Virus record (IMG/VR): IMGVR_UViG_3300044297_000138
Span: 64,001-128,000 of that record
Strand: one strand, 5' to 3'
From: a virus
Lineage: Duplodnaviria > Caudoviricetes
DNA length: 64,000 bases
Shown: piece by piece, positions 3,680 to 28,071 of the stretch
How positions within the stretch are numbered: the first letter of the stretch is position 1
Layout of the letters: each line of letters starts with the position of its first letter
The notes under the pieces: model-generated
Seen by the model: the letters and a program-made list of their open reading frames with translations, nothing else
What the model was told of the DNA's origin: nothing
The model's database searches: none
Program-made: the position numbers and the translations under genes

Positions 3680-4951
3680 ATGGGAAAGAAAAATCTAGCT
3701 GATGCCGCTAAAGCAGTTCTAATGAACGAAGGTTCAAAAGAAATTTTTGACGCTTCCGTTGCTCGTGGCCACAAAGAAGCCGGTTCAAAGTTACCTACAT
3801 CTGTTGCTTATGGCATGAAAGATGCTGGTGAAGTTGCTGGTGTAGTTGATAAAAAAGATGACCAAGCTGGTGATTATACAAAAGGTGTTCCAACAGCAAC
3901 ACCTCCTGGTGCAACACCACCTGTTGGTTCAGAACCAGCTCACAAGTTGGAAAATCAACCACAAGAAACACAAGGTGCTGAACACGCCGTTGCTCAAGAA
4001 GATCCAACTTCTTATGAAAACATCCGTGATCGCATCAAAGCCAAGTTGGCAAAACAAACAATGCAATCTAATCCTGGCGCTACATTCCAATCCTATGGTG
4101 AAGAAGTAGAAGTTAAGGAAGAAGAAGTTGTTGCCGAAGAAAAAGGCGAAGGACATGAAGATGAGGCTGAAGATAAAGCCCTTATCAAGAAAATGATGAA
4201 GAAAGACAAAATGAAAGAAGATATGGACGCTGACGTTGATGCTCTTCTTTCCGGTGAAAATCTTTCTGAAGAATTCAAAACAAAAGCCACAACCATTTTT
4301 GAATCTGCCGTTGTTGCTCGCACACAAGCTTTAGTAGAAGAAATTGAAGAAGCTATGGTAGAAGAATTTGAATTGGCTGTTGAAGAAGTCAAAAACGAAT
4401 TGGCACAGAAACTAGACGATTACATCAATTACATGGCTGAAGAATGGGTTAAAGATAACCAATTGGCCATTGAAAAAGGTCTACGTGCTGAAATCGTTGA
4501 AGATTTCATTGGCGGTTTGAAAGACTTGTTCATTGAACATTACATTGACATTCCAGAAGAAAAAGTTGACGTTGTTGAAGAATTGACAACCAAAGTAGAA
4601 GAATTGGAATCTGAATTGAATGAACAAATCCAATCATCCGTTGAACTACGCAAAGAATTAAACGAACATAAAAAAATTGAGGCTATACATGCAGTATGTG
4701 AAGGCCTAACGCAGACTCAAGTGGAAAAAATGAAAACACTCGCAGAGGGTGTAGAGTTTACCACAGACGAAGAATACGCAGAAAAACTAGTTACTCTAAG
4801 AACTTCATACTTCACAGAGTCAGTTAAGCCTGCTTCTAGTTCTGCTTTAAACGAAGAAGTTGTTGTTGAAGATGAAAAGAAACCTGTTGTTTCTTCTGAC
4901 CCAACAATCGCTGCTATCGCTTCCGCAATCTCAAAAACTTCGGTAAAATAA
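3680..4951 (+). CDS. gp22: Prohead core scaffold protein
   Basis: Acidic coiled coil, LSEEFKTKATTIFESAV, between gp21 and gp23. Confidence 0.93.
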   Translation: MGKKNLADAAKAVLMNEGSKEIFDASVARGHKEAGSKLPTSVAYGMKDAGEVAGVVDKKDDQAGDYTKGVPTATPPGATPPVGSEPAHKLENQPQETQGAEHAVAQEDPTSYENIRDRIKAKLAKQTMQSNPGATFQSYGEEVEVKEEEVVAEEKGEGHEDEAEDKALIKKMMKKDKMKEDMDADVDALLSGENLSEEFKTKATTIFESAVVARTQALVEEIEEAMVEEFELAVEEVKNELAQKLDDYINYMAEEWVKDNQLAIEKGLRAEIVEDFIGGLKDLFIEHYIDIPEEKVDVVEELTTKVEELESELNEQIQSSVELRKELNEHKKIEAIHAVCEGLTQTQVEKMKTLAEGVEFTTDEEYAEKLVTLRTSYFTESVKPASSSALNEEVVVEDEKKPVVSSDPTIAAIASAISKTSVK

Positions 4952-4993: not shown

Positions 4994-6349
4994 ATGTTTC
5001 TATCTGAAGAACTACAAAATAAATGGCAACCAGTTTTGGAACATCCAGAACTAGAAGCCATTAAGGATCCATACAAGAAGGCCGTCACTGCTGTTATCCT
5101 AGAAAACCAACAGCGTGAAATGACAGCTGCTGCTCAGCAGTTGAACGAAACAACCTACTCTGCTGCTCCTACCAACGTTACAGGTGCTGGTGTTCAAAAC
5201 TTTGACCCTATCCTTATCTCTTTGGTTCGCCGTGCATTGCCTAACCTTATCGCTTATGACGTTGCTGGCGTTCAGCCAATGACAGGCCCAACCGGCTTGA
5301 TCTTCGCAATGCGTGCTAAGTATAATGCACAAGGTACAGCTGGTTCAGGTGATTCTAACGAAGCTTTCTTCAACGAAGCTAACACAATCTTCTCAGGTTT
5401 GGGTTCAGGTACAGGCGCATCATTTGGTTTCGCTGGTAACAACACAACCGACACAGCAACAAGCGCAGTTCGTGACTTGACAGCTAACACCTTCACAACT
5501 GGTGTTGGTATGGCCACAGCTACTGCTGAAGGTTTGGGTGCAGATACCTCTACAGGTATGTTCAACCAAATGGCTTTCTCTATTGAGAAAGTTACTGTTA
5601 CTGCTAAGAGCCGTGCATTGAAGGCTGAATACTCTCTAGAACTTGCTCAAGACTTGAAAGCAATCCATGGTTTGGATGCTGAAACAGAGTTGAGCAACAT
5701 TCTTTCTACAGAGATTCTTGCTGAAATCAACCGTGAAGTTATCCGTACAATCTATACAGTTGCCGTTCCAGGTGCTCAGTATGGTACAACAACAGCTGGC
5801 GTGTTTGACTTAGACACCGACTCTAACGGTCGTTGGTCTGTTGAACGTTTCAAAGGTTTGATTTTCCAAATTGAACGTGATGCAAACGTCATCGCTAAGC
5901 AGACTCGTCGTGGTAAGGGTAACGTTCTGATCGTTTCTTCAGACGTTGCTTCTGCTATGGCTATGGCTGGTGTTCTTCAGTATACACCTGCTCTAAGCGC
6001 TGACTTGCAAGTTGACGATACAGGCAATACATTTGCTGGTATGTTACATGGCCGCATCAAGGTTTACATTGACCCATATTTCGGTGGTTACACTTCTAAC
6101 CAAGAATTGGTAACTATCGGTTATAAGGGTTCTTCACCTTATGATGCCGGTTTGTTCTACTGCCCATACGTTCCTCTACAAATGGTTCGTGCAGTTGACC
6201 AGTACACATTCCAACCAAAAATTGGTTTCAAGACCCGTTATGGTATGGTTGCAAACCCATTTGCAGAAGGTACTGATGTTGGCCAAGGTCGCTTGAGCGC
6301 TCGTGCTAACAAATACTATCGTCTATTCCAAGTTAAGAACTTGATGTAA
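4994..6349 (+). CDS. gp23: Major capsid protein
   Basis: GVQPMTGPTGLIFAMR, SRALKAEYSLELAQDLKAIHGLDAE, FQPKIGFKTRYG. Confidence 0.99.
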   Translation: MFLSEELQNKWQPVLEHPELEAIKDPYKKAVTAVILENQQREMTAAAQQLNETTYSAAPTNVTGAGVQNFDPILISLVRRALPNLIAYDVAGVQPMTGPTGLIFAMRAKYNAQGTAGSGDSNEAFFNEANTIFSGLGSGTGASFGFAGNNTTDTATSAVRDLTANTFTTGVGMATATAEGLGADTSTGMFNQMAFSIEKVTVTAKSRALKAEYSLELAQDLKAIHGLDAETELSNILSTEILAEINREVIRTIYTVAVPGAQYGTTTAGVFDLDTDSNGRWSVERFKGLIFQIERDANVIAKQTRRGKGNVLIVSSDVASAMAMAGVLQYTPALSADLQVDDTGNTFAGMLHGRIKVYIDPYFGGYTSNQELVTIGYKGSSPYDAGLFYCPYVPLQMVRAVDQYTFQPKIGFKTRYGMVANPFAEGTDVGQGRLSARANKYYRLFQVKNLM

Positions 6350-19926: not shown

Positions 19927-20038
19927 TCCCATCGGGATGGGAACCAGCAGTCCGAGGTAAGGCTGGTTATAAATTCCTCGGGTCAACGCCTTTTAGGGTT
20001 GGCAAATTTTAATTAACTCGCTTTTTAAGGAGAAACAA
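19927..20038 (+). promoter_or_regulatory. Structured hsp20 5' UTR with ROSE-like SD-occluding hairpin
   Basis: Three upstream stems incl. a pseudoknot; CTCGCTT pairs with AAGGAG leaving a bulged G. Confidence 0.6.
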
Positions 20039-20491
20039 ATGACTTATCTTACCCCTATGCTCGACTTCCGTAAATTGGATCCATTTGCTGTCGGCTTTGA
20101 TGAAATGTTCAAAGACCTACAAGAAATGACACAAAATACTGCGAAGCAATTTACTGCATATCCTCCATACAACATCCGTCAAGTCAAAGACAACAAGTAT
20201 GTCATTGAAATGGCCGTTGCTGGTTTTGCAAAATCTGACATTGAAGTTACATTAGAAGGTAACACTTTAGTAATTAAAGGTTCTGCAAAAGAATTAGATG
20301 GAGAAGAAGGCACATTCTTACACAAAGGAATTGCCAACCGTAACTTTAGCCGTGAATTCAAATTGGCCGACAAGATTGAAATCAAAGACGCCGAATTGGT
20401 AAATGGTATGTTAAAGGTTTGGTTGGAAAATATGGTCAAAGCCCAAGACCTAATCAAGAAGATTGCTGTCAAGGAAAAGAAAGATGAATAA
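20039..20491 (+). CDS. hsp20: Small heat-shock protein (Hsp20/IbpA family)
   Basis: YPPYNI, IEMAVAGF, LHKGIANRNFSREFKL, AELVNGML. Confidence 0.95.
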   Translation: MTYLTPMLDFRKLDPFAVGFDEMFKDLQEMTQNTAKQFTAYPPYNIRQVKDNKYVIEMAVAGFAKSDIEVTLEGNTLVIKGSAKELDGEEGTFLHKGIANRNFSREFKLADKIEIKDAELVNGMLKVWLENMVKAQDLIKKIAVKEKKDE

Positions 20492-20552
20492 TTGGTGGCC
20501 CGTATCCGATGAGGAATGGGAACGCTTAAATCATCCAGAAAAATTCCGTTAA
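20484..20552 (+). CDS. 22-aa micro-ORF MNNWWPVSDEEWERLNHPEKFR
   Basis: ATG overlaps end of hsp20, stop lies just before terminator. Confidence 0.45.
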   Translation: MNNWWPVSDEEWERLNHPEKFR

Positions 20553-20554
20553 TC

Positions 20555-20585
20555 AAAGGGGCTCTTGACAGAGCCCTTTCTTTTT
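20555..20585 (+). terminator. Intrinsic terminator overlapping a sigma70 promoter
   Basis: GGGCTC-TTGACA-GAGCCC + TTTCTTTTT. Confidence 0.75.
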
Positions 20586-20593
20586 GATATAAT
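20565..20593 (+). promoter_or_regulatory. Consensus sigma70 promoter
   Basis: TTGACA-N17-TATAAT, exact. Confidence 0.85.
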
Positions 20594-20599
20594 TCCATT

Positions 20600-20788
20600 A
20601 TGAAAACCGAAAAACCAATTAAAGTTCGTGTGATATCTTCCAAGGAAGAATTTTACACCTTTAAAAGTTGGCCTACAAAAACAATTGAAGGCATTACTTT
20701 TATTGGTGTGAATAAGTTCGTACCTACGCAAGACAAAACACAAGTCATGTATTGGTTGCGTAAGGATTCTTTAGAATATCTGAATTAA
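20600..20788 (+). CDS. Hypothetical protein (probably leaderless mRNA)
   Basis: ATG follows the -10 box after a 6-nt gap. Confidence 0.6.
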   Translation: MKTEKPIKVRVISSKEEFYTFKSWPTKTIEGITFIGVNKFVPTQDKTQVMYWLRKDSLEYLN

Positions 20789-20791
20789 TTT

Positions 20792-20868
20792 GCGCCTGTA
20801 GCTCAGTTGGTCAGAGCAGGGGACTCATAATCCCTTGGTCCTAGGTTCAAGTCCTAGTGGGCGCACCA
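20792..20868 (+). tRNA. tRNA(CAT), most likely Ile2 (lysidine type)
   Basis: Cloverleaf, loop CTCATAA, CCA end; arms resemble bacterial Ile2 tRNA. Confidence 0.85.
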
Positions 20869-20955
20869 TCTATCAACGACATAGAAAAAATCAATTAGAT
20901 TTTAAATTAAAATAGTGATATACTATCATACATAATTTTATTTAAGGAGAAATCT

Positions 20956-21093
20956 ATGAAGCAATATATGTGTGAAGTTTGTGGTCATATTCACGATGAA
21001 GAAACTATGGGTAAGTTGGAAAATTTGCCAAAGTATGCTAATTGTCCTGAATGTGGTGTTGATGTGAGAGAAGCATATAAAGAAGTTCAATGA
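20956..21093 (+). CDS. Rubredoxin-like protein (45 aa, below ORF-track cutoff)
   Basis: MKQYMCEVCGHIHDE...LP...CPECGV; AAGGAG RBS. Confidence 0.85.
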   Translation: MKQYMCEVCGHIHDEETMGKLENLPKYANCPECGVDVREAYKEVQ

Positions 21094-21521
21094 AAGAAAA
21101 ATTTCGTAATGCATATATGAAAACGGCCGAGACATTCGCAGAATTGTCCTCGGCTCGTAGACTTCATGTCGGTGCGATTATTGTAAAAGATGACCGCATT
21201 ATAAGTATTGGTTATAATGGTATGCCTTCTGGTTGGGACAACAATTGTGAAAACGATTTTGGATTGGATTTTAATGGTAACCGGACTCTAGTAACAAAAC
21301 CCGAGGTGTTACATGCTGAAACTAATGCAATCGCTAAGTTGGCAAGATCAAACGAATCTGGCCTTGGTTCTACTATGTTTATCACTCATGCTCCTTGTCT
21401 GGACTGTGCAAAACTGGTATATCAGTCTGGTATCAATACCGTTTACTATCGGAACAGTTATCGTGATGAAAATGGCATACAATTCTTGGAAAAAGCGGGA
21501 GTAACAATAGAAAAGATTTGA
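21090..21521 (+). CDS. cd: dCMP deaminase
   Basis: SIGYNG, HAETNA, PCLDC. Confidence 0.93.
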   Translation: MKEKFRNAYMKTAETFAELSSARRLHVGAIIVKDDRIISIGYNGMPSGWDNNCENDFGLDFNGNRTLVTKPEVLHAETNAIAKLARSNESGLGSTMFITHAPCLDCAKLVYQSGINTVYYRNSYRDENGIQFLEKAGVTIEKI

Positions 21522-21549
21522 CCGCTAAATAGGTCCAGGAGGGTGATCT

Positions 21550-22059
21550 ATGAATTTGAAGGTAATCAACTGTCCAGACAAGAACTTTAAACCTTACATA
21601 GAAAAGGCCGCTCTCTTTTACGCCAAGGAGTTGATTCCCAATACCAAAATTAGGAATAATTGCTTCACCACCATAAGATTTGATGGTAATTTGGAAGAAT
21701 ACGGATACGCATCCGTTGAAGATTACAACACCAGAAAACAAGCCAGAGAGTTCTTGATAGAAATACACCCTGGAATTGGTGCCAGAAAGATCCTGGAGAC
21801 TTTGGCACACGAAATGGTGCATGTCAAACAATATATACACAACGAAACCAACGATGACCTATCGGTCTGGCATGGTAAAAAATATAACTCCGATAAAATG
21901 GACTACTGGAGTCACCCATGGGAAATAGATGCCCATGGCCGTGAAACTGGCCTCTTAACTAAGTTTGCTATAAGTGAATGTTTATGGGAAGTTTTTGAAG
22001 AATTTAGGAATCCGAATCTACCAATAGTTTCTATTCCTATTAAGTGGAAGAAAATATGA
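21550..22059 (+). CDS. Zincin-like metallopeptidase domain protein
   Basis: LAHEMVHVKQY (HExxH) and PWEIDA; GCTAAATA late motif upstream. Confidence 0.7.
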   Translation: MNLKVINCPDKNFKPYIEKAALFYAKELIPNTKIRNNCFTTIRFDGNLEEYGYASVEDYNTRKQAREFLIEIHPGIGARKILETLAHEMVHVKQYIHNETNDDLSVWHGKKYNSDKMDYWSHPWEIDAHGRETGLLTKFAISECLWEVFEEFRNPNLPIVSIPIKWKKI

Positions 22060-22562
22060 GCCATGTTCATTGGGAACATAAAACATACGGTGCAGAAAAA
22101 ATTGAAGTTTTCCAGTGGGGTGAAGGTGCTACCTGTAAAATAGGAAAATATTGTTCTATTGCAGACAAAGTAAAAGTTTTTTTAGGTGGTGACCATAAAA
22201 TAAATTGGACTAGCACTTTTCCACATAGAGAACAAACAGGAACAAAAGGCGACATTATTATTGGCAACGATGTTTGGTTGAGTCACGGTGTTACCATCAT
22301 GTCCGGTGTTACAATAGGTGATGGTGCGATTGTTGCAGCCAATTCACATGTGGTTAAAAATGTTGAACCTTACACCATCGTTGGTGGAAATCCCGCAAAG
22401 TATATAAGACATAGATTTAGTGGCAACATAATAGATTTACTATTGCAATTAAAATGGTGGGATTTACCGGACGATGCGGTAAAAAGAATAGAAGATGTTT
22501 TATGTTCTGAACCGAACCAAGAAAAATTACTTGAGTTGGTAAAAGAACACAGAAGTATTTAA
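22056..22562 (+). CDS. Hexapeptide-repeat O-acetyltransferase (CatB/Vat-like)
   Basis: IGKYCSIA, IGNDVWL, GVTIGDGAIVAA, GGNPAK, LKWWD. Confidence 0.88.
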   Translation: MSHVHWEHKTYGAEKIEVFQWGEGATCKIGKYCSIADKVKVFLGGDHKINWTSTFPHREQTGTKGDIIIGNDVWLSHGVTIMSGVTIGDGAIVAANSHVVKNVEPYTIVGGNPAKYIRHRFSGNIIDLLLQLKWWDLPDDAVKRIEDVLCSEPNQEKLLELVKEHRSI

Positions 22563-22582
22563 AAATATTTTTACGAAATCGC

Positions 22583-22611
22583 TTGCCAACGGCAGCAAAT
22601 GCCTATATAAT
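22583..22611 (+). promoter_or_regulatory. sigma70 promoter of leader/attenuator
   Basis: TTGCCA-N17-TATAAT. Confidence 0.8.
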
Positions 22612-22643
22612 ACAAACATATTGAAATTTTTACGAAAGAAAAA

Positions 22644-22748
22644 ATGTTATCCATACATAGATCGACACTAAAGGCCTGTGAGTATCGCACACCATTTATT
22701 GGTAGCGATAATCAGTCATGGCTAAAGGGGTCTTGTATAGGAGCTTAA
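22644..22748 (+). CDS. Putative attenuator leader peptide, 34 aa: MLSIHRSTLKACEYRTPFIGSDNQSWLKGSCIGA
   Basis: Between promoter and terminator; 19 amino acids; codons 29-31 form the antiterminator arm; RBS weak (GAAAG). Confidence 0.65.
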   Translation: MLSIHRSTLKACEYRTPFIGSDNQSWLKGSCIGA

Positions 22749-22781
22749 TACAAAAGTAGTAAAAGAAACTTCAAACACAAG

Positions 22782-22810
22782 ACCCAGACCCTCAAAAGTC
22801 TGGGTTTTTT
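22782..22810 (+). terminator. Intrinsic terminator (attenuator) upstream of tRNA array
   Basis: ACCCAGAC-8nt-GTCTGGGT + T run; 5' arm overlaps ACAAGACCC, which is complementary to GGGTCTTGT at 22728-22736. Confidence 0.8.
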
Positions 22811-22837
22811 GTTTGGTGTGTCATAAAAACAACACCA

Positions 22838-22866
22838 TTGACAAAGCAATCTGGCTTTGTTATAAT
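22838..22866 (+). promoter_or_regulatory. Consensus sigma70 promoter with palindromic spacer
   Basis: TTGACA-N17-TATAAT; ACAAAGC-N6-GCTTTGT inverted repeat. Confidence 0.85.
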
Positions 22867-22873
22867 AGAAAAT

Positions 22874-22885
22874 CGTTCTTTAAAA
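22874..22885 (+). promoter_or_regulatory. boxA-like antitermination element
   Basis: CGTTCTTTAAAA resembles rrn/lambda boxA (GCTCTTTAACA), just after the promoter. Confidence 0.55.
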
Positions 22886-22903
22886 ATTTGTAGAGTCATT
22901 TGT

Positions 22904-22979
22904 ACCCTCTTAGCCAAGCTGGTAAGGCATCGGATTTTGATTCCGACATGCGGTGGTTCAAGTCCATCAGGGGGTGCCA
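22904..22979 (+). tRNA. tRNA-Gln(TTG)
   Basis: Cloverleaf, loop TTTTGAT, CCA. Confidence 0.92.
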
Positions 22980-23057
22980 TACAAAAACACATCAGTATCG
23001 AAAAGGTACGTGCGACTGAAAAGCCGGGGTTTGTGAGCTTGGTGTGTTTCTATATGG
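22977..23057 (+). ncRNA. Unknown structured RNA closed by an 18-bp stem
   Basis: CCATACAAAAACACATCA / TGGTGTGTTTCTATATGG (16 of 18 pair). Confidence 0.5.
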
Positions 23058-23064
23058 TTTTAAT

Positions 23065-23156
23065 GGAAGTGTGGCAGAGTCCGGTTTATTGCACCTGTCT
23101 TGAAAACAGACGATCTGTAAAAGGGTCCGTGAGTTCGAATCTCACCGCTTCCGCCA
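23065..23156 (+). tRNA. tRNA-Ser(TGA)
   Basis: Long variable arm, loop CTTGAAA, GCCA end. Confidence 0.92.
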
Positions 23157-23159
23157 ATA

Positions 23160-23254
23160 TGTTGAGCTGGGAATTTGGCCTTCGATGTATCTAATAAGAA
23201 ACTAGCAAAACTATTAGAGTTGGCATCCTTCCTTGCTAGTTAATCAGCTCAACA
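23160..23254 (+). ncRNA. Unknown structured RNA with potential pseudoknot
   Basis: 10-bp closing stem, 9-bp inner stem, crossing 7-bp stem. Confidence 0.5.
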
Positions 23255-23264
23255 AAATATTTAT

Positions 23265-23354
23265 GGAGAGTGGGCAGGATGGTAATGCAGCGGATTGCTA
23301 ATCCGTAGACTTACGAAAGTAGGTCACAGGGTTCGACTCCCTGACTCTCCGCCA
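23265..23354 (+). tRNA. tRNA-Ser(GCT)
   Basis: Long variable arm, loop TTGCTAA, GCCA end. Confidence 0.92.
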
Positions 23355-23422
23355 AGTTGTGTTGCAACTGATTTGAGGAACTCCCGTACACCTCAAAGAG
23401 AATGACAAAAAAACGGGGCCAT

Positions 23423-23514
23423 GCCAGCGAGACTTGGTAGTCAGAGAGGTCTTATAAGCCTTTTAGCGCCAGATTAGCGTTCTTGAGTGAGTTCGATTCT
23501 CACCGCTGGTACCA
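23423..23514 (+). tRNA. Atypical tRNA with TAT anticodon (nominally Ile) and long variable arm
   Basis: Acceptor GCCAGCG/CGCTGGT-A-CCA, 4-nt D loop, loop CTTATAA, T arm GTGAG-TTCGATT-CTCAC. Confidence 0.8.
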
Positions 23515-23519
23515 ATCAT

Positions 23520-23595
23520 GTAGGTGTGACCCGAAAGGCTAGGGAACGGATTGCAAATCCGTTTTATGCAGGTTCGATTCCTGTCACCTACTCCA
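23520..23595 (+). tRNA. tRNA-Cys(GCA)
   Basis: Loop TTGCAAA, U73-CCA. Confidence 0.92.
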
Positions 23596-23690
23596 TAATA
23601 CTTGATTGATTTTATGGAGAACTAAAGTGTTACTTGCCAAAATTATTAATTGTGATACAATAGAGTTTCTTTCATTGAATGAGGTATCAA

Positions 23691-23912
23691 ATGATTACTG
23701 AAAAGCAAATCAAAAAATTGAAAAAATTTGGTTATAAAGTTTTTGGAGTTGTTGGTCATAAAGAAGGAACACATTGCTTTGATTATTATGGGTATGAAGT
23801 ACCTAAAATTCGGAGCATTTGTCCCGCTTATGTTGCACACAAAGGAGAAATGAAAGCGTGGGAAGCAGTTTTGAAATTTCATCAAGAAGAAGTTGAAGGT
23901 GTTTTAATTTAA
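23691..23912 (+). CDS. Hypothetical protein inside tRNA array
   Basis: GAGGT RBS; TTGCCA-N16-TACAAT promoter at 23634-23661. Confidence 0.6.
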   Translation: MITEKQIKKLKKFGYKVFGVVGHKEGTHCFDYYGYEVPKIRSICPAYVAHKGEMKAWEAVLKFHQEEVEGVLI

Positions 23913-23922
23913 AAATTTGTGT

Positions 23923-23997
23923 GCTCGGTTCGTCTATCGGTTAGGACGCTGGCCTTTCACGCCGGAAAGACGAGTTCGATTCTCGTACCGAGTACCA
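23923..23997 (+). tRNA. tRNA-Glu(TTC)
   Basis: Loop CTTTCAC, CCA. Confidence 0.92.
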
Positions 23998-24210
23998 TAT
24001 TAAATTGCATTGGGTTACCAATTCCAATAGGTGACTGTCAGGGATAGATTCAGCAGCCGTGCTGACCTTGACACAATCACATGAAGCCTGACGATGGTGT
24101 TGGAAGTAATTGGTTCGTAATGTGGACATAACCTTATCGGCGGACGAAGCCGTGAGAAGTCTCCTGGAGTGGAGAAACGGTTGTGACACCCCAATGTAAT
24201 TTAGTATGGT
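23994..24210 (+). ncRNA. Unknown ~215-nt multi-stem RNA
   Basis: 21-bp uninterrupted closing stem (2 GU) plus internal hairpins. Confidence 0.65.
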
Positions 24211-24213
24211 ATT

Positions 24214-24333
24214 ATTTGTTTTGCTGATGTAAGCTCAGAGGTACGATCAAACGTTATGTAACTATGTAAATAAACGGTAATTCTTGCAAGTAAGTCCGTT
24301 GAGCATAGCATATAGTGCGTCAGCAAAACAAAT
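24214..24333 (+). ncRNA. Unknown ~120-nt structured RNA
   Basis: 18-bp closing stem ATTTGTTTTGCTGATGTA / TGCGTCAGCAAAACAAAT. Confidence 0.55.
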
Positions 24334-24341
24334 GGTATTAT

Positions 24342-24416
24342 GCAGGTGTAACTCAGAGGCAGAGTATCTGGCTTTTAACCAGAGAGTCGAGATTTCAAAA
24401 TTCTCCACCTGTACCA
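24342..24416 (+). tRNA. tRNA-Lys(TTT)
   Basis: Loop CTTTTAA; T stem ends in a T.T mismatch instead of G-C. Confidence 0.88.
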
Positions 24417-24425
24417 GTAGAATTT

Positions 24426-24510
24426 GGAGGTGCCGCCGTAATGGTATGGCAGGAGACTGTAAATCTTCCGGCTTGCGCCACAGTAGGTTCGATCCCTACC
24501 ACCTCCACCA
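24426..24510 (+). tRNA. tRNA-Tyr(GTA)
   Basis: Loop CTGTAAA, variable arm, CCA. Confidence 0.92.
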
Positions 24511-24515
24511 AATTT

Positions 24516-24590
24516 GGTCCGTAAGTGTTCATGGACGCACGTAAGCTTGTCACGCTTAAAGAAGGGGCTCGATACCCCTACGGACCGCCA
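24516..24590 (+). tRNA. tRNA-Asp(GTC)
   Basis: Loop TTGTCAC, G73-CCA; atypical T loop CTCGATA. Confidence 0.85.
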
Positions 24591-24603
24591 TATATAATTT
24601 TAT

Positions 24604-24678
24604 TCCCCGTTAGCTCAGCGGCAGAGCAGTTGACTGTTAATCAATTGGTCCCTGGTTCGATCCCAGGATGGGGAGCCA
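24604..24678 (+). tRNA. tRNA-Asn(GTT)
   Basis: Loop CTGTTAA, CCA. Confidence 0.95.
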
Positions 24679-24684
24679 AATATT

Positions 24685-24761
24685 CGGAGTGTAGCACAGC
24701 CTGGTAGTGCGCTTGCTTTGGGAGCAAGAGGTCCAAGGTTCGAATCCTTGTACTCCGACCA
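24685..24761 (+). tRNA. tRNA-Pro(TGG)
   Basis: Loop TTTGGGA, CGG acceptor, CCA. Confidence 0.95.
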
Positions 24762-24766
24762 TCTTT

Positions 24767-24842
24767 GGGCCAGTAGCTCATCTGGGAGAGCATCTGCTTT
24801 GCAAGCAGAGGGTAGCGGGTTCAAGTCCTGTCTGGTCCACCA
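24767..24842 (+). tRNA. tRNA-Ala(TGC)
   Basis: Loop TTTGCAA, G3.U70, CCA. Confidence 0.95.
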
Positions 24843-24847
24843 AAACG

Positions 24848-25110
24848 TGCCGTCTAGTCAACGGCTACTCCGACCCGGAGGACGAGAAGTGGTGTGATGG
24901 CCACGGGTGGTTCTGAGATTTGGAATATAAGTCTCACAGTAGAAATACTGCGGTCTAACCAAACCGGCGCTGGCAATGCGATAACGGCCCCTGTCGGGGA
25001 GCGGGTGGAAGGTGCGTGTGATGGTGGTGTGGTATGAGTGCCTAAAAGGCGTCCTCAGAGTCCATTAACTGCTTGATGCGCTATAATTACCGCCGAGGGG
25101 TGCCAGAGCA
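24848..25110 (+). ncRNA. Unknown ~260-nt GC-rich multi-domain RNA
   Basis: At least 8 stems incl. a GAAA tetraloop hairpin and long-range pairings; no ORF; between tRNA-Ala and tRNA-Met. Confidence 0.7.
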
Positions 25111-25113
25111 TTT

Positions 25114-25188
25114 GGTGATATAGCATAGAAGGATATGCACGGGTTTCATACGCCTGCAAGGTTGGATCGTTACCAACTATCACCACCA
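25114..25188 (+). tRNA. tRNA-Met(CAT), elongator type
   Basis: Loop TTCATAC, paired 1-72; atypical T loop ATCGTTA. Confidence 0.8.
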
Positions 25189-25194
25189 AATTTT

Positions 25195-25270
25195 CGGTCC
25201 TTGGTGAAACTGGAGATCATCTGAGTCTACGAAATTCAAGTTGGGGGCTCGAATCCCTCAGGACCGGCCA
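25195..25270 (+). tRNA. tRNA-Arg(ACG)
   Basis: Loop CTACGAA; T loop CTCGAAT. Confidence 0.88.
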
Positions 25271-25275
25271 AATTT

Positions 25276-25350
25276 ACCGAGTTAGCTCAGCGGTAGAGCA
25301 GCGTCTTGATAAGGCGTTGGCCAGTGGTTCAATCCCACTACTCGGTACCA
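25276..25350 (+). tRNA. tRNA-Ile(GAT)
   Basis: Loop TTGATAA, CCA. Confidence 0.93.
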
Positions 25351-25352
25351 TT

Positions 25353-25427
25353 ATCTCGCTGGTGTCAACGGCAGCATGACGGTCTCCAAAACCGTGGGAC
25401 GGGGTTCGAATCCCTGGCGGGATGCCA
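25353..25427 (+). tRNA. tRNA-Trp(CCA)
   Basis: Loop CTCCAAA, G73-CCA. Confidence 0.93.
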
Positions 25428-25448
25428 TTTTTTATAAAGGTGATTGAT

Positions 25449-25925
25449 ATGAAAAAATTCAATGTAGAAGAAGTCAAAACATTCCTTGCAACACAAGGAC
25501 CTGATACCCGTGTATACTTGGGTGCCGACTCCGAAAGAATTAGAGTTAACGGCGTATGGTATGCTGACTATGCATTGGCTGTTGTTGTTCATATTGATGG
25601 CCGCCACGGTTGTAAAATTTTCGGTTATGTTGACCGTGAATTGGATTACGACCATAAGAAAAGTAAACCTGCTATGCGTCTGATGACAGAAGTATATAAG
25701 GTTTCAGAATTGTTTCAAGAATTGCAACATTCACTAGAAGATTTCCATGTTGAAGTTCACTTGGACTTAAATAAGGATGAAGAATTCGGTTCTTCTTGTG
25801 TTGTGCAACAAGCGATTGGTTACATCAAAGGTACATGTAACATGACACCTATGGTTAAACCAGACGCACCTGCCGCTTCTTTCTGTGCAGACCGACTGAA
25901 ACGGATTTTAGCGGAACAAGAATGA
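25449..25925 (+). CDS. RNase H-like YkuK (DUF458) family protein
   Basis: VYLGADS, VVVHIDG..GCKIF, RLMTEV, EVHLDLN, AASFCAD. Confidence 0.75.
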   Translation: MKKFNVEEVKTFLATQGPDTRVYLGADSERIRVNGVWYADYALAVVVHIDGRHGCKIFGYVDRELDYDHKKSKPAMRLMTEVYKVSELFQELQHSLEDFHVEVHLDLNKDEEFGSSCVVQQAIGYIKGTCNMTPMVKPDAPAASFCADRLKRILAEQE

Positions 25926-25926
25926 T

Positions 25927-26001
25927 GCAGGAATTAGTTTAGTGGCAAAACCACGGGTTGTGATTCCGTTATCAAGAGTTCGATTCTCTTATTCCTGCCC
26001 A
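25927..26001 (+). tRNA. tRNA-His(GTG)
   Basis: G-1:C73, loop TTGTGAT. Confidence 0.92.
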
Positions 26002-26003
26002 AT

Positions 26004-26079
26004 GCTTCGTTAACTCAGTTGGTAGAGTGCCTCCCTTACAAGGAGGATGTCGGCAGTTCGAACCTGTCACGAAGCACCA
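26004..26079 (+). tRNA. tRNA-Val(TAC)
   Basis: Loop CTTACAA, CCA. Confidence 0.94.
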
Positions 26080-26084
26080 ATATT

Positions 26085-26160
26085 GCAGCTCTAGCTGATG
26101 TGGTCATAGCGGCGGTCTGAAGAACCGTTGAACCAGGTTCGATTCCTGGGGGTTGCACCA
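26085..26160 (+). tRNA. tRNA-Phe(GAA)
   Basis: Loop CTGAAGA, CCA. Confidence 0.9.
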
Positions 26161-26161
26161 A

Positions 26162-26235
26162 GCTCTCATAGTATAATGGTATTACACACCCTTGGTAAGG
26201 GTGAAACACAAGTTCAATTCTTGTTGAGAGCACCA
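26162..26235 (+). tRNA. tRNA-Thr(GGT)
   Basis: Loop TTGGTAA, CCA. Confidence 0.9.
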
Positions 26236-26423
26236 GATTGTTTTAATCTAGTCATTTTCTTTTTAATGTAAGCTGTTCTGGCAACATCATGTTCACATAT
26301 TTCAGCCAACAAAGCAATAATATAACCTAAATCATAGGCTAGTTTTTGTCCAGAAGTTTTGTGCTGGTTGCCAGAATTCTGGAGTTGTTCTATAATATAG
26401 TCTGTAAGTTGTTTTTTATTCAT
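26214..26423 (-). CDS. Hypothetical protein antisense within tRNA array
   Basis: 69-aa ORF fills an AT-rich gap; TAAATA motif immediately upstream on minus strand. Confidence 0.45.
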   Translation of the reverse strand: MNKKQLTDYIIEQLQNSGNQHKTSGQKLAYDLGYIIALLAEICEHDVARTAYIKKKMTRLKQSGALNKN

Positions 26424-26437
26424 AGAAATATTTATTT

Positions 26438-26514
26438 GCCCCGGTGACGGAATTGGTATACGTGTTGGTCTTAGAAGCCAAATTTTGAGAGTTCGAGTCT
26501 CTCCTGGGGCACCA
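26438..26514 (+). tRNA. tRNA-Leu(TAG) with short variable loop
   Basis: Loop CTTAGAA, Leu-type D arm, A73, only 5-nt variable region. Confidence 0.88.
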
Positions 26515-26519
26515 AATTA

Positions 26520-26594
26520 CTGGCCATAGTATAATGGATAATACAGCTGCCTTCTAAGCAGTCAATCGGGGTTCGATTCCCTGTGGCCGGACCA
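26520..26594 (+). tRNA. tRNA-Arg(TCT)
   Basis: Loop CTTCTAA, CCA. Confidence 0.92.
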
Positions 26595-26597
26595 AAT

Positions 26598-26682
26598 GCG
26601 ACTATGGTGAAATAGGTAGACACAGGAGACTTAAAATCTCCCGACTTCGGTCGTGCTGGTTCGATTCCGGCTAGTCGCACCA
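26598..26682 (+). tRNA. tRNA-Leu(TAA)
   Basis: Loop CTTAAAA, variable arm with UUCG loop. Confidence 0.94.
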
Positions 26683-26690
26683 AAAAGTTA

Positions 26691-26719
26691 TTGACATTGA
26701 TAGAAAGATCATATATAAT
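26691..26719 (+). promoter_or_regulatory. Consensus sigma70 promoter
   Basis: TTGACA-N17-TATAAT, exact, before tRNA-Gly(GCC). Confidence 0.85.
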
Positions 26720-26729
26720 ATAAATGTAA

Positions 26730-26804
26730 GCGGGATTGGTGCTAGTGGTAACACGGGACCTTGCCAAGGTTCAGTTGCGAGTTCGATCCTCGCATCCCGC
26801 TCCA
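26730..26804 (+). tRNA. tRNA-Gly(GCC)
   Basis: Loop TTGCCAA, GCG acceptor, U73-CCA. Confidence 0.93.
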
Positions 26805-26809
26805 AATGA

Positions 26810-26884
26810 GCTCCGTTAGTTCTAGTGGTAAAACATCGGTTTTGTAATCCGAGGTCGGGTGTTCGATTCACCCCCGGAGCACCA
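26810..26884 (+). tRNA. tRNA-Thr(TGT)
   Basis: Loop TTTGTAA; mismatches at 7-66 and 31-39. Confidence 0.85.
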
Positions 26885-26892
26885 GATAATGC

Positions 26893-26921
26893 TTGACTCT
26901 ACAATTTTTTTGTGATATAAT
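26893..26921 (+). promoter_or_regulatory. sigma70 promoter
   Basis: TTGACT-N17-TATAAT with TG extension. Confidence 0.8.
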
Positions 26922-26941
26922 TTGTTTTATTAAATATTAAT

Positions 26942-27014
26942 GCGGGTATTCTCCTGGGAGAGAATTTAGCCTTCCAAGCTAACAGAATCGGTTCGAATCC
27001 GGTTACCCGCTCCA
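26942..27014 (+). tRNA. tRNA-Gly(TCC)
   Basis: Loop CTTCCAA, U73-CCA. Confidence 0.9.
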
Positions 27015-27021
27015 GTTTTAT

Positions 27022-27088
27022 GCGGTATGGTATTAACTGTCTGAGGGTCCACCTTAGAAGTGTTGTGAGAATCAATAATACCGCTCCA
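27022..27088 (+). ncRNA. D-armless tRNA-Gly(TCC)-like RNA
   Basis: Acceptor GCGGTAT/ATACCGC-T-CCA, anticodon arm CTGAG-GGTCCAC-CTTAG, T-like arm TGTTG-TGAGAAT-CAATA, no D stem. Confidence 0.65.
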
Positions 27089-27094
27089 TTCAAT

Positions 27095-27169
27095 CGCAGG
27101 GTGGAGAAGTAGTAACTCATCAGGCTCATACCCTGAAGATCGGCGGTGCGAATCCGTCCCCTGCAACCA
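27095..27169 (+). tRNA. Initiator tRNA-fMet(CAT)
   Basis: C1.A72 mismatch, loop CTCATAC; only two G-C pairs at base of anticodon stem. Confidence 0.88.
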
Positions 27170-27182
27170 ATTTGAGGTAATT

Positions 27183-27422
27183 ATGAGACCATTGCATAAT
27201 AAAGTTATTGTTGAAAGAATTCCTGGTGAAACTACCACATCATCAGGAATTGTCTTACAAAGATCCGATGAGGTAGACAAAGCAAAAGTTATTGCGATTG
27301 GTCCAGATGTTGAAGAGGTTTCTGTCGGTGATACTGTCCTATTAGATTGGAACAGAGCAGTCAAGGCAGGAGACAATTTTGTTATTACAGTAGACAATAT
27401 CGTTTTAATTTACGGAGAGTAA
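27183..27422 (+). CDS. groES: Co-chaperonin GroES-like protein
   Basis: MRPLHNKVIVER, TTSSGIVL, AKVIAIGP, VSVGDTVL. Confidence 0.9.
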   Translation: MRPLHNKVIVERIPGETTTSSGIVLQRSDEVDKAKVIAIGPDVEEVSVGDTVLLDWNRAVKAGDNFVITVDNIVLIYGE

Positions 27423-27423
27423 T

Positions 27424-27600
27424 ATGTCTGATGGTGGAAAAGGTTCCAGTCCAAGACCATATAGTGTAGATCAAAAAACATATTCTGATAATTGGGACAG
27501 AATTTTTAAGAAAAAAACTCCACAAGAAATAGACGATGACCGAGCCGAGCAAGAGGCTTTTGAGTTTATAAAAAAATTTAATGAAACATCAAAAAAGTAG
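27424..27600 (+). CDS. Small hypothetical protein MSDGGKGSSPRPYSVDQKTYSDNWDRIF (58 aa)
   Basis: GGAG RBS, open frame filling the gap; below ORF-track cutoff. Confidence 0.7.
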   Translation: MSDGGKGSSPRPYSVDQKTYSDNWDRIFKKKTPQEIDDDRAEQEAFEFIKKFNETSKK

Positions 27601-27633
27601 TTAAAAAAATCTAAAGATTGGATACATATTGCT

Positions 27634-28071
27634 ATGAAGAAACTTGTAAATATCCAATCTTTAGATCATCCACTTGCACAATATTTAAAGGATGATCCGG
27701 TTCGTCCTGACATTCCACATGATGTGAGAGTGGGGTCTAATTCAACCGTGTTTGCGTTACAAGATGATGATAAATTATCCGCAATGGTATGTGTAAAATA
27801 CCAAGATAATGTTCCATCAAATATAAGTGAATTGATGGATGAACCTAAAAGTCCAAAAGTGGCAGTATTTTATACCATTTGGAGTTATATGGCTGGCGCA
27901 GGCCGTGATATGATTATGGAAACAAGAAAATGGATTGAGGGCAACAATCCTGAAATAGAAGAATTTGTTACCTATAGTCCAAAAACGGAAATGGCCAAGA
28001 GGTTTCACCTGAAAAACGGTGCATCAGTTTACCGTGAAAATGAAGATTCGGTAAACTACAAGTATGATTAA
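27634..28071 (+). CDS. Hypothetical protein, GNAT-like features
   Basis: DDPVRP, FYTIWSY..GAGR, TYSPKTEMAKRFHLKNGA. Confidence 0.55.
   Translation: MKKLVNIQSLDHPLAQYLKDDPVRPDIPHDVRVGSNSTVFALQDDDKLSAMVCVKYQDNVPSNISELMDEPKSPKVAVFYTIWSYMAGAGRDMIMETRKWIEGNNPEIEEFVTYSPKTEMAKRFHLKNGASVYRENEDSVNYKYD

Follow-up and report, generated by a model that had tools for sequence, protein, structure and literature searches.

A short open reading frame (ORF) whose codons sample nearly every amino acid stands, with its own promoter and intrinsic terminator, ahead of a large tRNA array in a T4-like phage, and it is probably part of a trp-type, ribosome-mediated attenuator controlling how much transcription from the promoter P1 continues into the tRNA genes. 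The basis for this reading comes from the sequence and its comparison with relatives: the ORF, two mutually exclusive helices, their covariation, the composition of the leader and its position before the tRNAs. Translation of the leader, the direction of the response, its dynamic range and its natural trigger are the parts of the attenuator model that we infer.

The window analysed here is a stretch of 64,000 nucleotides (bases 64001-128000) from an IMG/VR phage record with a length of 174.5 kb. The phage is T4-like in its capsid, portal and replication genes, and its nearest cultured capsids are those of Methylophilales phage Melnitz, Pelagibacter phage Mosig and cyanomyoviruses (~64% identity). 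DNA of the phage is present in freshwater metagenomes from several studies. Searches with ARAGORN and Rfam identified 28 tRNA genes in the window, 27 of which form one array that opens with a tRNA-Gln gene starting at 22904. The features discussed below are the following.

22583..22611, + strand: promoter P1, TTGCCA-N17-TATAAT; 11/12 match to the sigma-70 consensus, both hexamers kept in relatives
22634..22638, + strand: weak Shine-Dalgarno-like GAAAG in an A-rich 5' UTR; predicted anti-Shine-Dalgarno pairing of -0.9 kcal/mol
22644..22748, + strand: leader ORF with ATG start, 34 codons, 19 amino acids (no Val), 24/26 phage decoding classes
22649..22663, + strand: candidate region 1, codons ~3-7, which pairs with arm 2 in the full-length minimum-free-energy fold; tentative
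22673..22723, + strand: hairpin H1 inside the ORF, a predicted fold; core TATCGC (22683-22688)/GCGATA (22705-22710), inner ACCA/TGGT
22727..22736, + strand: arm 2, antiterminator 5' arm, GGGGTCTTGT; codons 29-31 and the last base of codon 28
22777..22786, + strand: arm 3, antiterminator 3' arm; its ACCC(A) also belongs to the terminator 5' arm
22782..22815, + strand: intrinsic terminator, ACCCAGAC/GTCTGGGT, from the terminator scan; G+C-rich stem, 8-nt loop, T-run at 22805-22810, then GTTTG
22838..22866, + strand: promoter P2, TTGACA-N17-TATAAT with TG extended -10; 12/12 match, found in most relatives and absent in at least eight
22873..22895, + strand: boxA-like element, TCGTTCTTTAAAAATTTGTAGAG; past the decision point of the attenuator, nearly invariant, also in relatives that lack P2
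22904..27169, + strand: tRNA array, 27 genes for all 20 amino acids (ARAGORN and Rfam); the presumed regulated genes

The leader and its competing helices

Most of this layout had been proposed in a preliminary description made from the letters of the window, and its elements were recovered here: the promoter P1, the unlisted 34-codon ORF with its ATG start and, by a terminator scan, the terminator (there placed at 22782-22810). The transcription start of P1 is predicted near 22618. The description had also warned that the ribosome-binding site (GAAAG) is weak, and the warning is justified, as predicted pairing with the anti-Shine-Dalgarno sequence of the 16S rRNA upstream of the leader start amounts to -0.9 kcal/mol against a gene median of -4.15 kcal/mol.

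The sequence likewise bears out the count that had been given for codons 1-26, namely 25 different codons encoding 19 amino acids, with Val alone absent. Measured against windows of the phage's own proteins, 19 amino acids in 34 codons has a probability of p = 0.012, and the same number is reached by 10 of the 739 short ORFs of the genome, the leader among them. A stronger signal emerges from the decoding classes defined by the phage's own anticodon set. The leader covers 24 of these 26 classes (p ~1e-4, null mean 16.9), in agreement with the proposal that it samples separate boxes for Leu, Arg, Ser, Ile and Gly. Codon diversity had been suggested for comparison with random expectation, and with 29 different codons within the 34-codon leader it exceeds that expectation (p = 0.004). 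Almost every amino acid is represented by one or two codons; Leu, Ser, Arg, Ile and Gly each appear with codons from both boxes. The regulatory codons are not clustered, there being no runs for any single amino acid. Taken alone, the diversity of the leader in the present window is merely suggestive; the relatives settle the question. An Rfam search (cmscan, E <= 1) of positions 20000-28000 returned tRNAs and chance matches only, none of them within 22583-22900, and six leader peptides gave no family match in Pfam or PHROGs.

At its 3' end the leader overlaps the RNA switch. Within arm 2, GGGTCTTGT (22728-22736) is the exact reverse complement of ACAAGACCC (22777-22785), and the latter runs into the 5' arm of the terminator, just as the preliminary description had it. 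This arrangement recurs in all 59 sequences analysed: the duplex of arms 2 and 3 is found in 59/59, with energies from -11 to -25 kcal/mol, and in 59/59 arm 3 has 6-11 nt in common with the terminator 5' arm, while the end of arm 2 lies anywhere from 5 nt after to 18 nt before the stop codon. The trp/his attenuator geometry that had been proposed for the window thus held in every relative analysed, and the arms covary. Pairs of arms change together between subfamilies (GGGGTTTTTGAAGA/TTTTCAAAAACCTC, GGGGGTTGTGGA/TCCACAACCCC and GAGGTTTGTG/CACAAACCTC), and one position of the duplex occurs as U-G, C-G and U-A pairs, the relative L082 carrying a double change. In a plain MAFFT alignment, 88% of the cells of the arm 2:arm 3 helix pair, versus 26-64% in slid controls; changes on both sides occur at six pairs, and 0 of 500 shuffles reach the observed values. 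For the terminator 97% of the cells pair, and 45 cells are altered on both sides.

Folding predictions agree with a switch between these two helices. Naked transcripts ending at the terminator loop adopt the antiterminator fold in 53/59 sequences, and the full-length RNA adopts the terminator fold in 57/59 relatives. In the present phage the full-length RNA is more stable with the terminator (-54.6 kcal/mol) than with the antiterminator (-46.9 kcal/mol), and therefore antitermination rests on kinetics. Judging from the geometry, a ribosome at the end of the leader would mask arm 2, which occupies codons 29-31 of 34.

Two further helices may take part. For H1, 84% of the cells pair, versus 17-54% in slid controls, with little covariation that does not exceed shuffles, and insertions of 3n nucleotides lengthen its stem in a complementary manner. 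In the predicted fold, H1 accounts for the nucleotide-invariant GAGTATCGCACA block. Region 1, represented in relatives by CATAAACCC opposite GGGTTT.., pairs with arm 2 in 85% of cells, above slid controls, and its column-based covariation with arm 2 is not above shuffles. The covariation counts for H1 and for region 1:arm 2 are conservative, as MAFFT sets divergent subfamilies out of register. H1, region 1:arm 2 and arm 2:arm 3 were all scored on supplied structures; RNAalifold, run on 40 full modules, predicted the terminator alone. The models leave room for H1 as a pause hairpin and for region 1:arm 2 as an anti-antiterminator. In an untranslated RNA the predicted thermodynamics favour arm 2:arm 3, and region 1:arm 2 could form first during transcription. 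A consensus pause site (G-10/Y-1/G+1) past H1, judged by eye, fits the main family and fails in the present window, and it was dropped.

Conservation and composition in related phages

We gathered 160 related IMG/VR loci via two neighbouring proteins, and a combination of BLASTN and an nhmmer profile located the module of P1, ORF and terminator in 82 of these first 160 (64 distinct). A pattern lying wholly outside the ORF (arm 3 and the 3' arm of the terminator) retrieved 112 stretches. Altogether more than 100 related IMG/VR contigs conserve the whole module, i.e. P1, a short ORF and an intrinsic terminator, and in all retrieved relatives it is located immediately upstream of the first tRNA of the array. 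The preliminary description had named a conserved short ORF with covarying stems before the arrays of relatives as the feature to look for, and this is what the comparison revealed. Among cultured phages, a DNA search of INPHARED with the region gave matches to tRNA-Gln only, and tblastn with a leader peptide gave no credible match, so that no cultured relative with the element was found.

The ORF behaves as a coding feature in these comparisons, and its translation is suggested by several signs. The leader frame is open in every relative, and the other five frames of the same DNA contain on average 1-3.5 stops. Within the ORF 10 of 13 gap events are multiples of three, versus 6 of 21 in the non-coding part, and the exceptions inside the ORF sum to multiples of three. 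Start codons come in three arrangements: a GTG or ATG ~31 nt past the -10 box, sometimes with AGGAAG; an ATG 6-7 nt past the -10 box, giving a leaderless mRNA, in frame throughout a whole sub-lineage; and a TTG. Mean column identity in the peptide alignment is 30%. Part of the peptide conservation is an RNA constraint, given that several conserved motifs coincide with the helices H1, region 1 and arm 2.

The all-amino-acid content is, on the evidence of the aligned leaders, a selected trait of the family and not the quirk of a single sequence. We compared 77 distinct leaders, which are 30-47 codons long (median 35): the full set of 20 amino acids is present in 47 of them, 19 amino acids in a further 20 and 17-18 in the remaining 10. 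Windows of the phage's proteins at these lengths reach 20 amino acids with a probability of 0.0002-0.007 per sequence, typically ~0.001. Combining 13 subfamily representatives by Fisher's method yields p = 2e-19, a value that overstates the case because it assumes independence. Under a stricter null, in which conserved columns were fixed and the rest randomised, the divergent lineages each give p values of 0.001-0.04. Several leaders fit all 20 amino acids into 31-32 residues. The positions of His, Val, Trp, Cys and internal Met in the peptide alignment differ from one subfamily to another, and this shifting of rare residues fits selection for presence and not for position. Averaged over the same DNA, the leader frame encodes 19.5 amino acids versus 15.7-17.5 in the other frames, and the median leader of the family covers 24/26 decoding classes. 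At elongation positions Met is the usual gap, absent in 49 of the 77 leaders, and therefore the initiator normally supplies it.

The relation of the leader to the array behind it is a looser one. The idea that the amino acids of the leader strictly match the tRNAs of the array was considered and fails, for example in L169 and L175. The count drops to 17-18 amino acids in a few lineages. An anecdotal figure from the 30-codon subfamily is that a Gln codon in the leader accompanies a tRNA-Gln in the array in 4/5 cases. Three distant relatives with 4-7 tRNAs (L138, ~4810-4940; L141, ~1335-1470; L140, ~5150-5290) keep the geometry of ORF, arms and terminator, and their leaders are 21-25 codons long with 11-17 amino acids. 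The first of them has a 21-codon Leu-rich leader ahead of a Leu/Pro/Thr/Met array; L141 adds to this a Trp codon in the leader and a tRNA-Trp gene; L140 has a 25-codon leader ahead of seven tRNAs. The shorter and less diverse leaders of relatives with smaller arrays hint at co-evolution of leader and array.

Two observations concern the surroundings of the module. Between the phrog_10499 gene and P1 the present phage carries a Vat/xenobiotic-type hexapeptide acetyltransferase gene (22044-22562), with 44% identity to streptogramin acetyltransferases annotated in Streptococcus phages and 51% to an uncultured phage of 735 kb. In relatives P1 comes directly after the phrog_10499 gene, and the acetyltransferase gene therefore has the look of an insertion confined to the present phage. 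In five more distant relatives (L119, L145, L148, L150 and L151, ~4520-4640) the site of the module is taken by a promoter followed by a conserved structured RNA of ~75 nt (ATGCGGTCGGGG...CCACCGCTCCA), which is tRNA-like and not called by ARAGORN, and a Lys-rich ORF of 54-57 residues lies between this RNA and the first tRNA.

From the proposed switch into the tRNA array

The attenuator could operate as follows. Transcripts from the early promoter P1, starting at ~22618, would carry the 34-codon leader, the last codons of which contain arm 2. A ribosome that keeps abreast of the polymerase would be positioned at or close to arm 2 or the stop codon as arm 3 emerges; arm 3 would then pair with arm 4 and transcription would end at ~22810, giving an RNA of ~195 nt. 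If instead the ribosome lags more than ~4 codons upstream of arm 2, this arm would stay free to pair with arm 3, no terminator would form, and the polymerase would continue over the boxA-like element into the tRNA genes. Nearly every amino acid is sampled by the leader, as are the two boxes of each split family, and a shortage of almost any charged tRNA should therefore delay the ribosome. Any such shortage would then slow the ribosome and probably raise tRNA transcription, and the element would act as a homeostat for overall decoding capacity. According to the preliminary description, a stall at almost any earlier codon would permit read-through. This would apply along most of the leader, except at the codons within ~4 of arm 2, where the geometry leaves a stall unreported, the arm being already covered by the ribosome.

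A caveat raised at the outset was that a second promoter might bypass the terminator. P2 is indeed a perfect promoter, and in the present phage it begins 28 nt beyond the T-run, so that it could bypass the switch and supply most of the transcription of the array. The caveat loses force in the wider family, where at least eight relatives lack P2. In six of these (L110, L099, L095, L105, L098 and L103) the first tRNA lies within ~10 nt of the T-run, and in L090 and L053 ~45 nt without a promoter separate the two. In relatives that lack P2 the transcripts from P1 must pass the terminator to reach the first tRNAs, and therefore a constitutive terminator would make no sense there.

The boxA-like element follows P2 in the window, follows the attenuator where P2 is absent, and recurs after internal promoters of the arrays (nhmmer profile positions 258-344 in relatives). 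An rrn-type boxA is recognised as a sequence near TGCTCTTTAACAA at the start of an untranslated operon, and we compared the candidate element by sequence: it agrees at 14-15 of 18 positions with the boxA region of E. coli rrnB (PMC2176067). The candidate element probably recruits Nus factors and so protects the untranslated array from Rho. Its location downstream of the switch implies that attenuation would be decided before a Nus-type antitermination complex could load.

A single metatranscriptome contig touches on transcription of the region. It is 191 nt long and 97% identical, and it covers 22648-22834, beginning just within the ORF and ending 24 nt past the T-run; the gene upstream is uncovered in the same run. 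The contig is a weak hint of transcription and of read-through across the terminator, metatranscriptome contigs being unable to show the ends or levels of RNAs and uncovered stretches carrying no meaning. Most contig matches represent conserved tRNA from other organisms.

Alternative readings, known attenuators and significance

Other explanations of the module have to be weighed against a switch that reads the charged-tRNA pool. The element might be a general sensor of transcription-translation coupling or ribosome availability, with host shut-off, ribosome-targeting toxins or temperature as possible inputs, and the composition of the leader would then be secondary. Indeed, the geometry demands just a lagging ribosome, there are no codon runs that would amplify any one amino acid, and leader content tracks array content only loosely. 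Nonetheless, such a sensor leaves unexplained why leaders of 30-40 codons retain 19-20 amino acids from lineage to lineage even as the residues shift, and why they sample the two decoding boxes of each of Leu, Ser, Arg, Ile and Gly; we consider it unlikely. It looks improbable, too, that the ORF is an independent small-protein gene whose peptide, for instance an early phage micro-protein, is the product, with arm 2:arm 3 merely stabilising or tuning the mRNA. This would suit the conserved ORF with its own promoter and terminator and its conserved residues (EYRT, D..SW and G.C), as well as the presence of P2, which frees the array from the leader in the present phage. The mean column identity of just 30%, the lack of a family match in Pfam or PHROGs for six leaders and the coincidence of the conserved residues with RNA helices speak against it, however; a role as a protein leaves the presence of all 20 amino acids in a 31-residue peptide unexplained, and where relatives lack P2 the first tRNAs would be silenced by a constitutive terminator.

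The third codon positions that are invariant in GAGTATCGCACA and TCATGG, the compact predicted fold and the weak Shine-Dalgarno site could also be read as signs of a structured non-coding or dual-function small RNA of ~195 nt, made up of region 1:arm 2, H1 and the terminator, in which the open frame is incidental. We think this very improbable: indels come in threes inside the ORF only, the frame is open in all relatives with stops in the other frames, a whole sub-lineage has in-frame leaderless ATG starts, the completeness in amino acids is left unexplained, and there is no Rfam match at E <= 1. Finally, the terminator might be a plain insulator, halting early transcription from upstream and leaving P2 to fire undisturbed, with the ORF and the complementarity of the arms as by-products. 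A consensus P2 lies 28 nt past the terminator, and two distant relatives (L128 and L130) have a terminator and P2 with no leader. Against this stand a dedicated, conserved P1 only ~190 nt upstream of the terminator, the covariation of the antiterminator and the relatives that do without P2, which make insulation the least probable of the explanations considered here.

If the module is read as an attenuator, its sequence places it structurally in the trp/his class, from which it departs by its unclustered codons and its control of tRNA genes. With the trpL, hisL, leuL and pheL attenuators it has in common a short ORF close to the promoter, an intrinsic terminator and an antiterminator, one strand of which also belongs to the terminator. 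In those attenuators the position of the ribosome picks the helix, as is proposed for the phage element; the phage leader may also possess a region 1:arm 2 helix and an internal hairpin. Those leaders carry a codon run for one amino acid, whereas the phage leader has nearly every amino acid one to two times. Moreover, the enterobacterial leaders control biosynthetic genes, while the phage element precedes phage tRNA genes, has a second promoter past the terminator in most members and matches no Rfam leader family. Multivalent attenuators also exist, in which the ilvGMEDA leader responds to Ile, Leu and Val and the thr leader to Thr and Ile. These resemble the phage element in that one leader serves more than one amino acid, but they sense two or three amino acids, with clustered codons and a biosynthetic operon as output, whereas the phage leader has 19-20, as single codons.

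T-box riboswitches share with the element the sensing of tRNA charging (proposed here) and a terminator/antiterminator switch ahead of genes for the decoding apparatus. However, a T-box lacks an ORF and makes direct contact with a single uncharged tRNA, whereas in the phage element the ribosome would be the reader and all tRNAs would be sampled; Rfam gave no T-box match at E <= 1 in 20000-28000. A further likeness is to the pyrBI and pyrE attenuators and to drug-stalled leaders, in which read-through is set by the distance between ribosome and polymerase or by stalling in the leader, as in the drug-induced attenuator of mef/mel (PMC4335068). The inputs of pyrBI/pyrE and mef/mel are UTP or antibiotics, and their leaders are not compositionally complete. 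Full-text literature searches turned up no report of tRNA genes controlled by a leader peptide, nor of a leader in which all amino acids occur.

Both the reason for the large tRNA sets of phages and the way in which they are regulated are open problems; codon bias, the replenishment of a degraded host pool and the evasion of defences that cleave tRNAs are among the reasons put forward. Tentatively, and at somewhat less than even confidence, we suggest that the 'pangram' leader is a phage homeostat for the whole decoding apparatus, which has the ribosome probe every charged tRNA in a single passage, answers a shortage with extra transcription of the phage's own complete tRNA set and serves as the sensor arm of a counter-defence. 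The shortages sensed in this way might arise from starvation, a mismatch in codon demand, host anticodon nucleases or other tRNA-depleting defences. No regulatory logic would have been described for phage tRNA arrays before a conserved switch of this kind, in which one leader reads all amino acids; such a switch would extend classical attenuation from one amino acid to the whole pool and would provide a compact, portable sensor of global translational capacity. Natural controls are offered by the leader of the present phage, which has no Val, and that of its relative L082, which has Val.

Some of the tRNA genes in these phages have features of their own. Upstream of the module, at 20556-20868, a terminator hairpin overlaps a 12/12 promoter (20556-20593) and is followed by a 62-codon ORF (20600-20788), and a lone tRNA-Met (20792-20868) begins 3 nt past this ORF. 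Within the array, positions 23423-23514 encode a 92-nt tRNA-Ile (anticodon TAT) with a long extra arm, which three relatives (L006, L018 and L099) keep and for which the best Rfam score is a weak one to tRNA-Sec (34.8 bits). Stop-codon anticodons occur in the arrays of two relatives, at L018:6928-7002 (CTA, amber; labelled 'Pyl' by ARAGORN) and near position 3160 of L078 (labelled 'tRNA-Stop' by ARAGORN).
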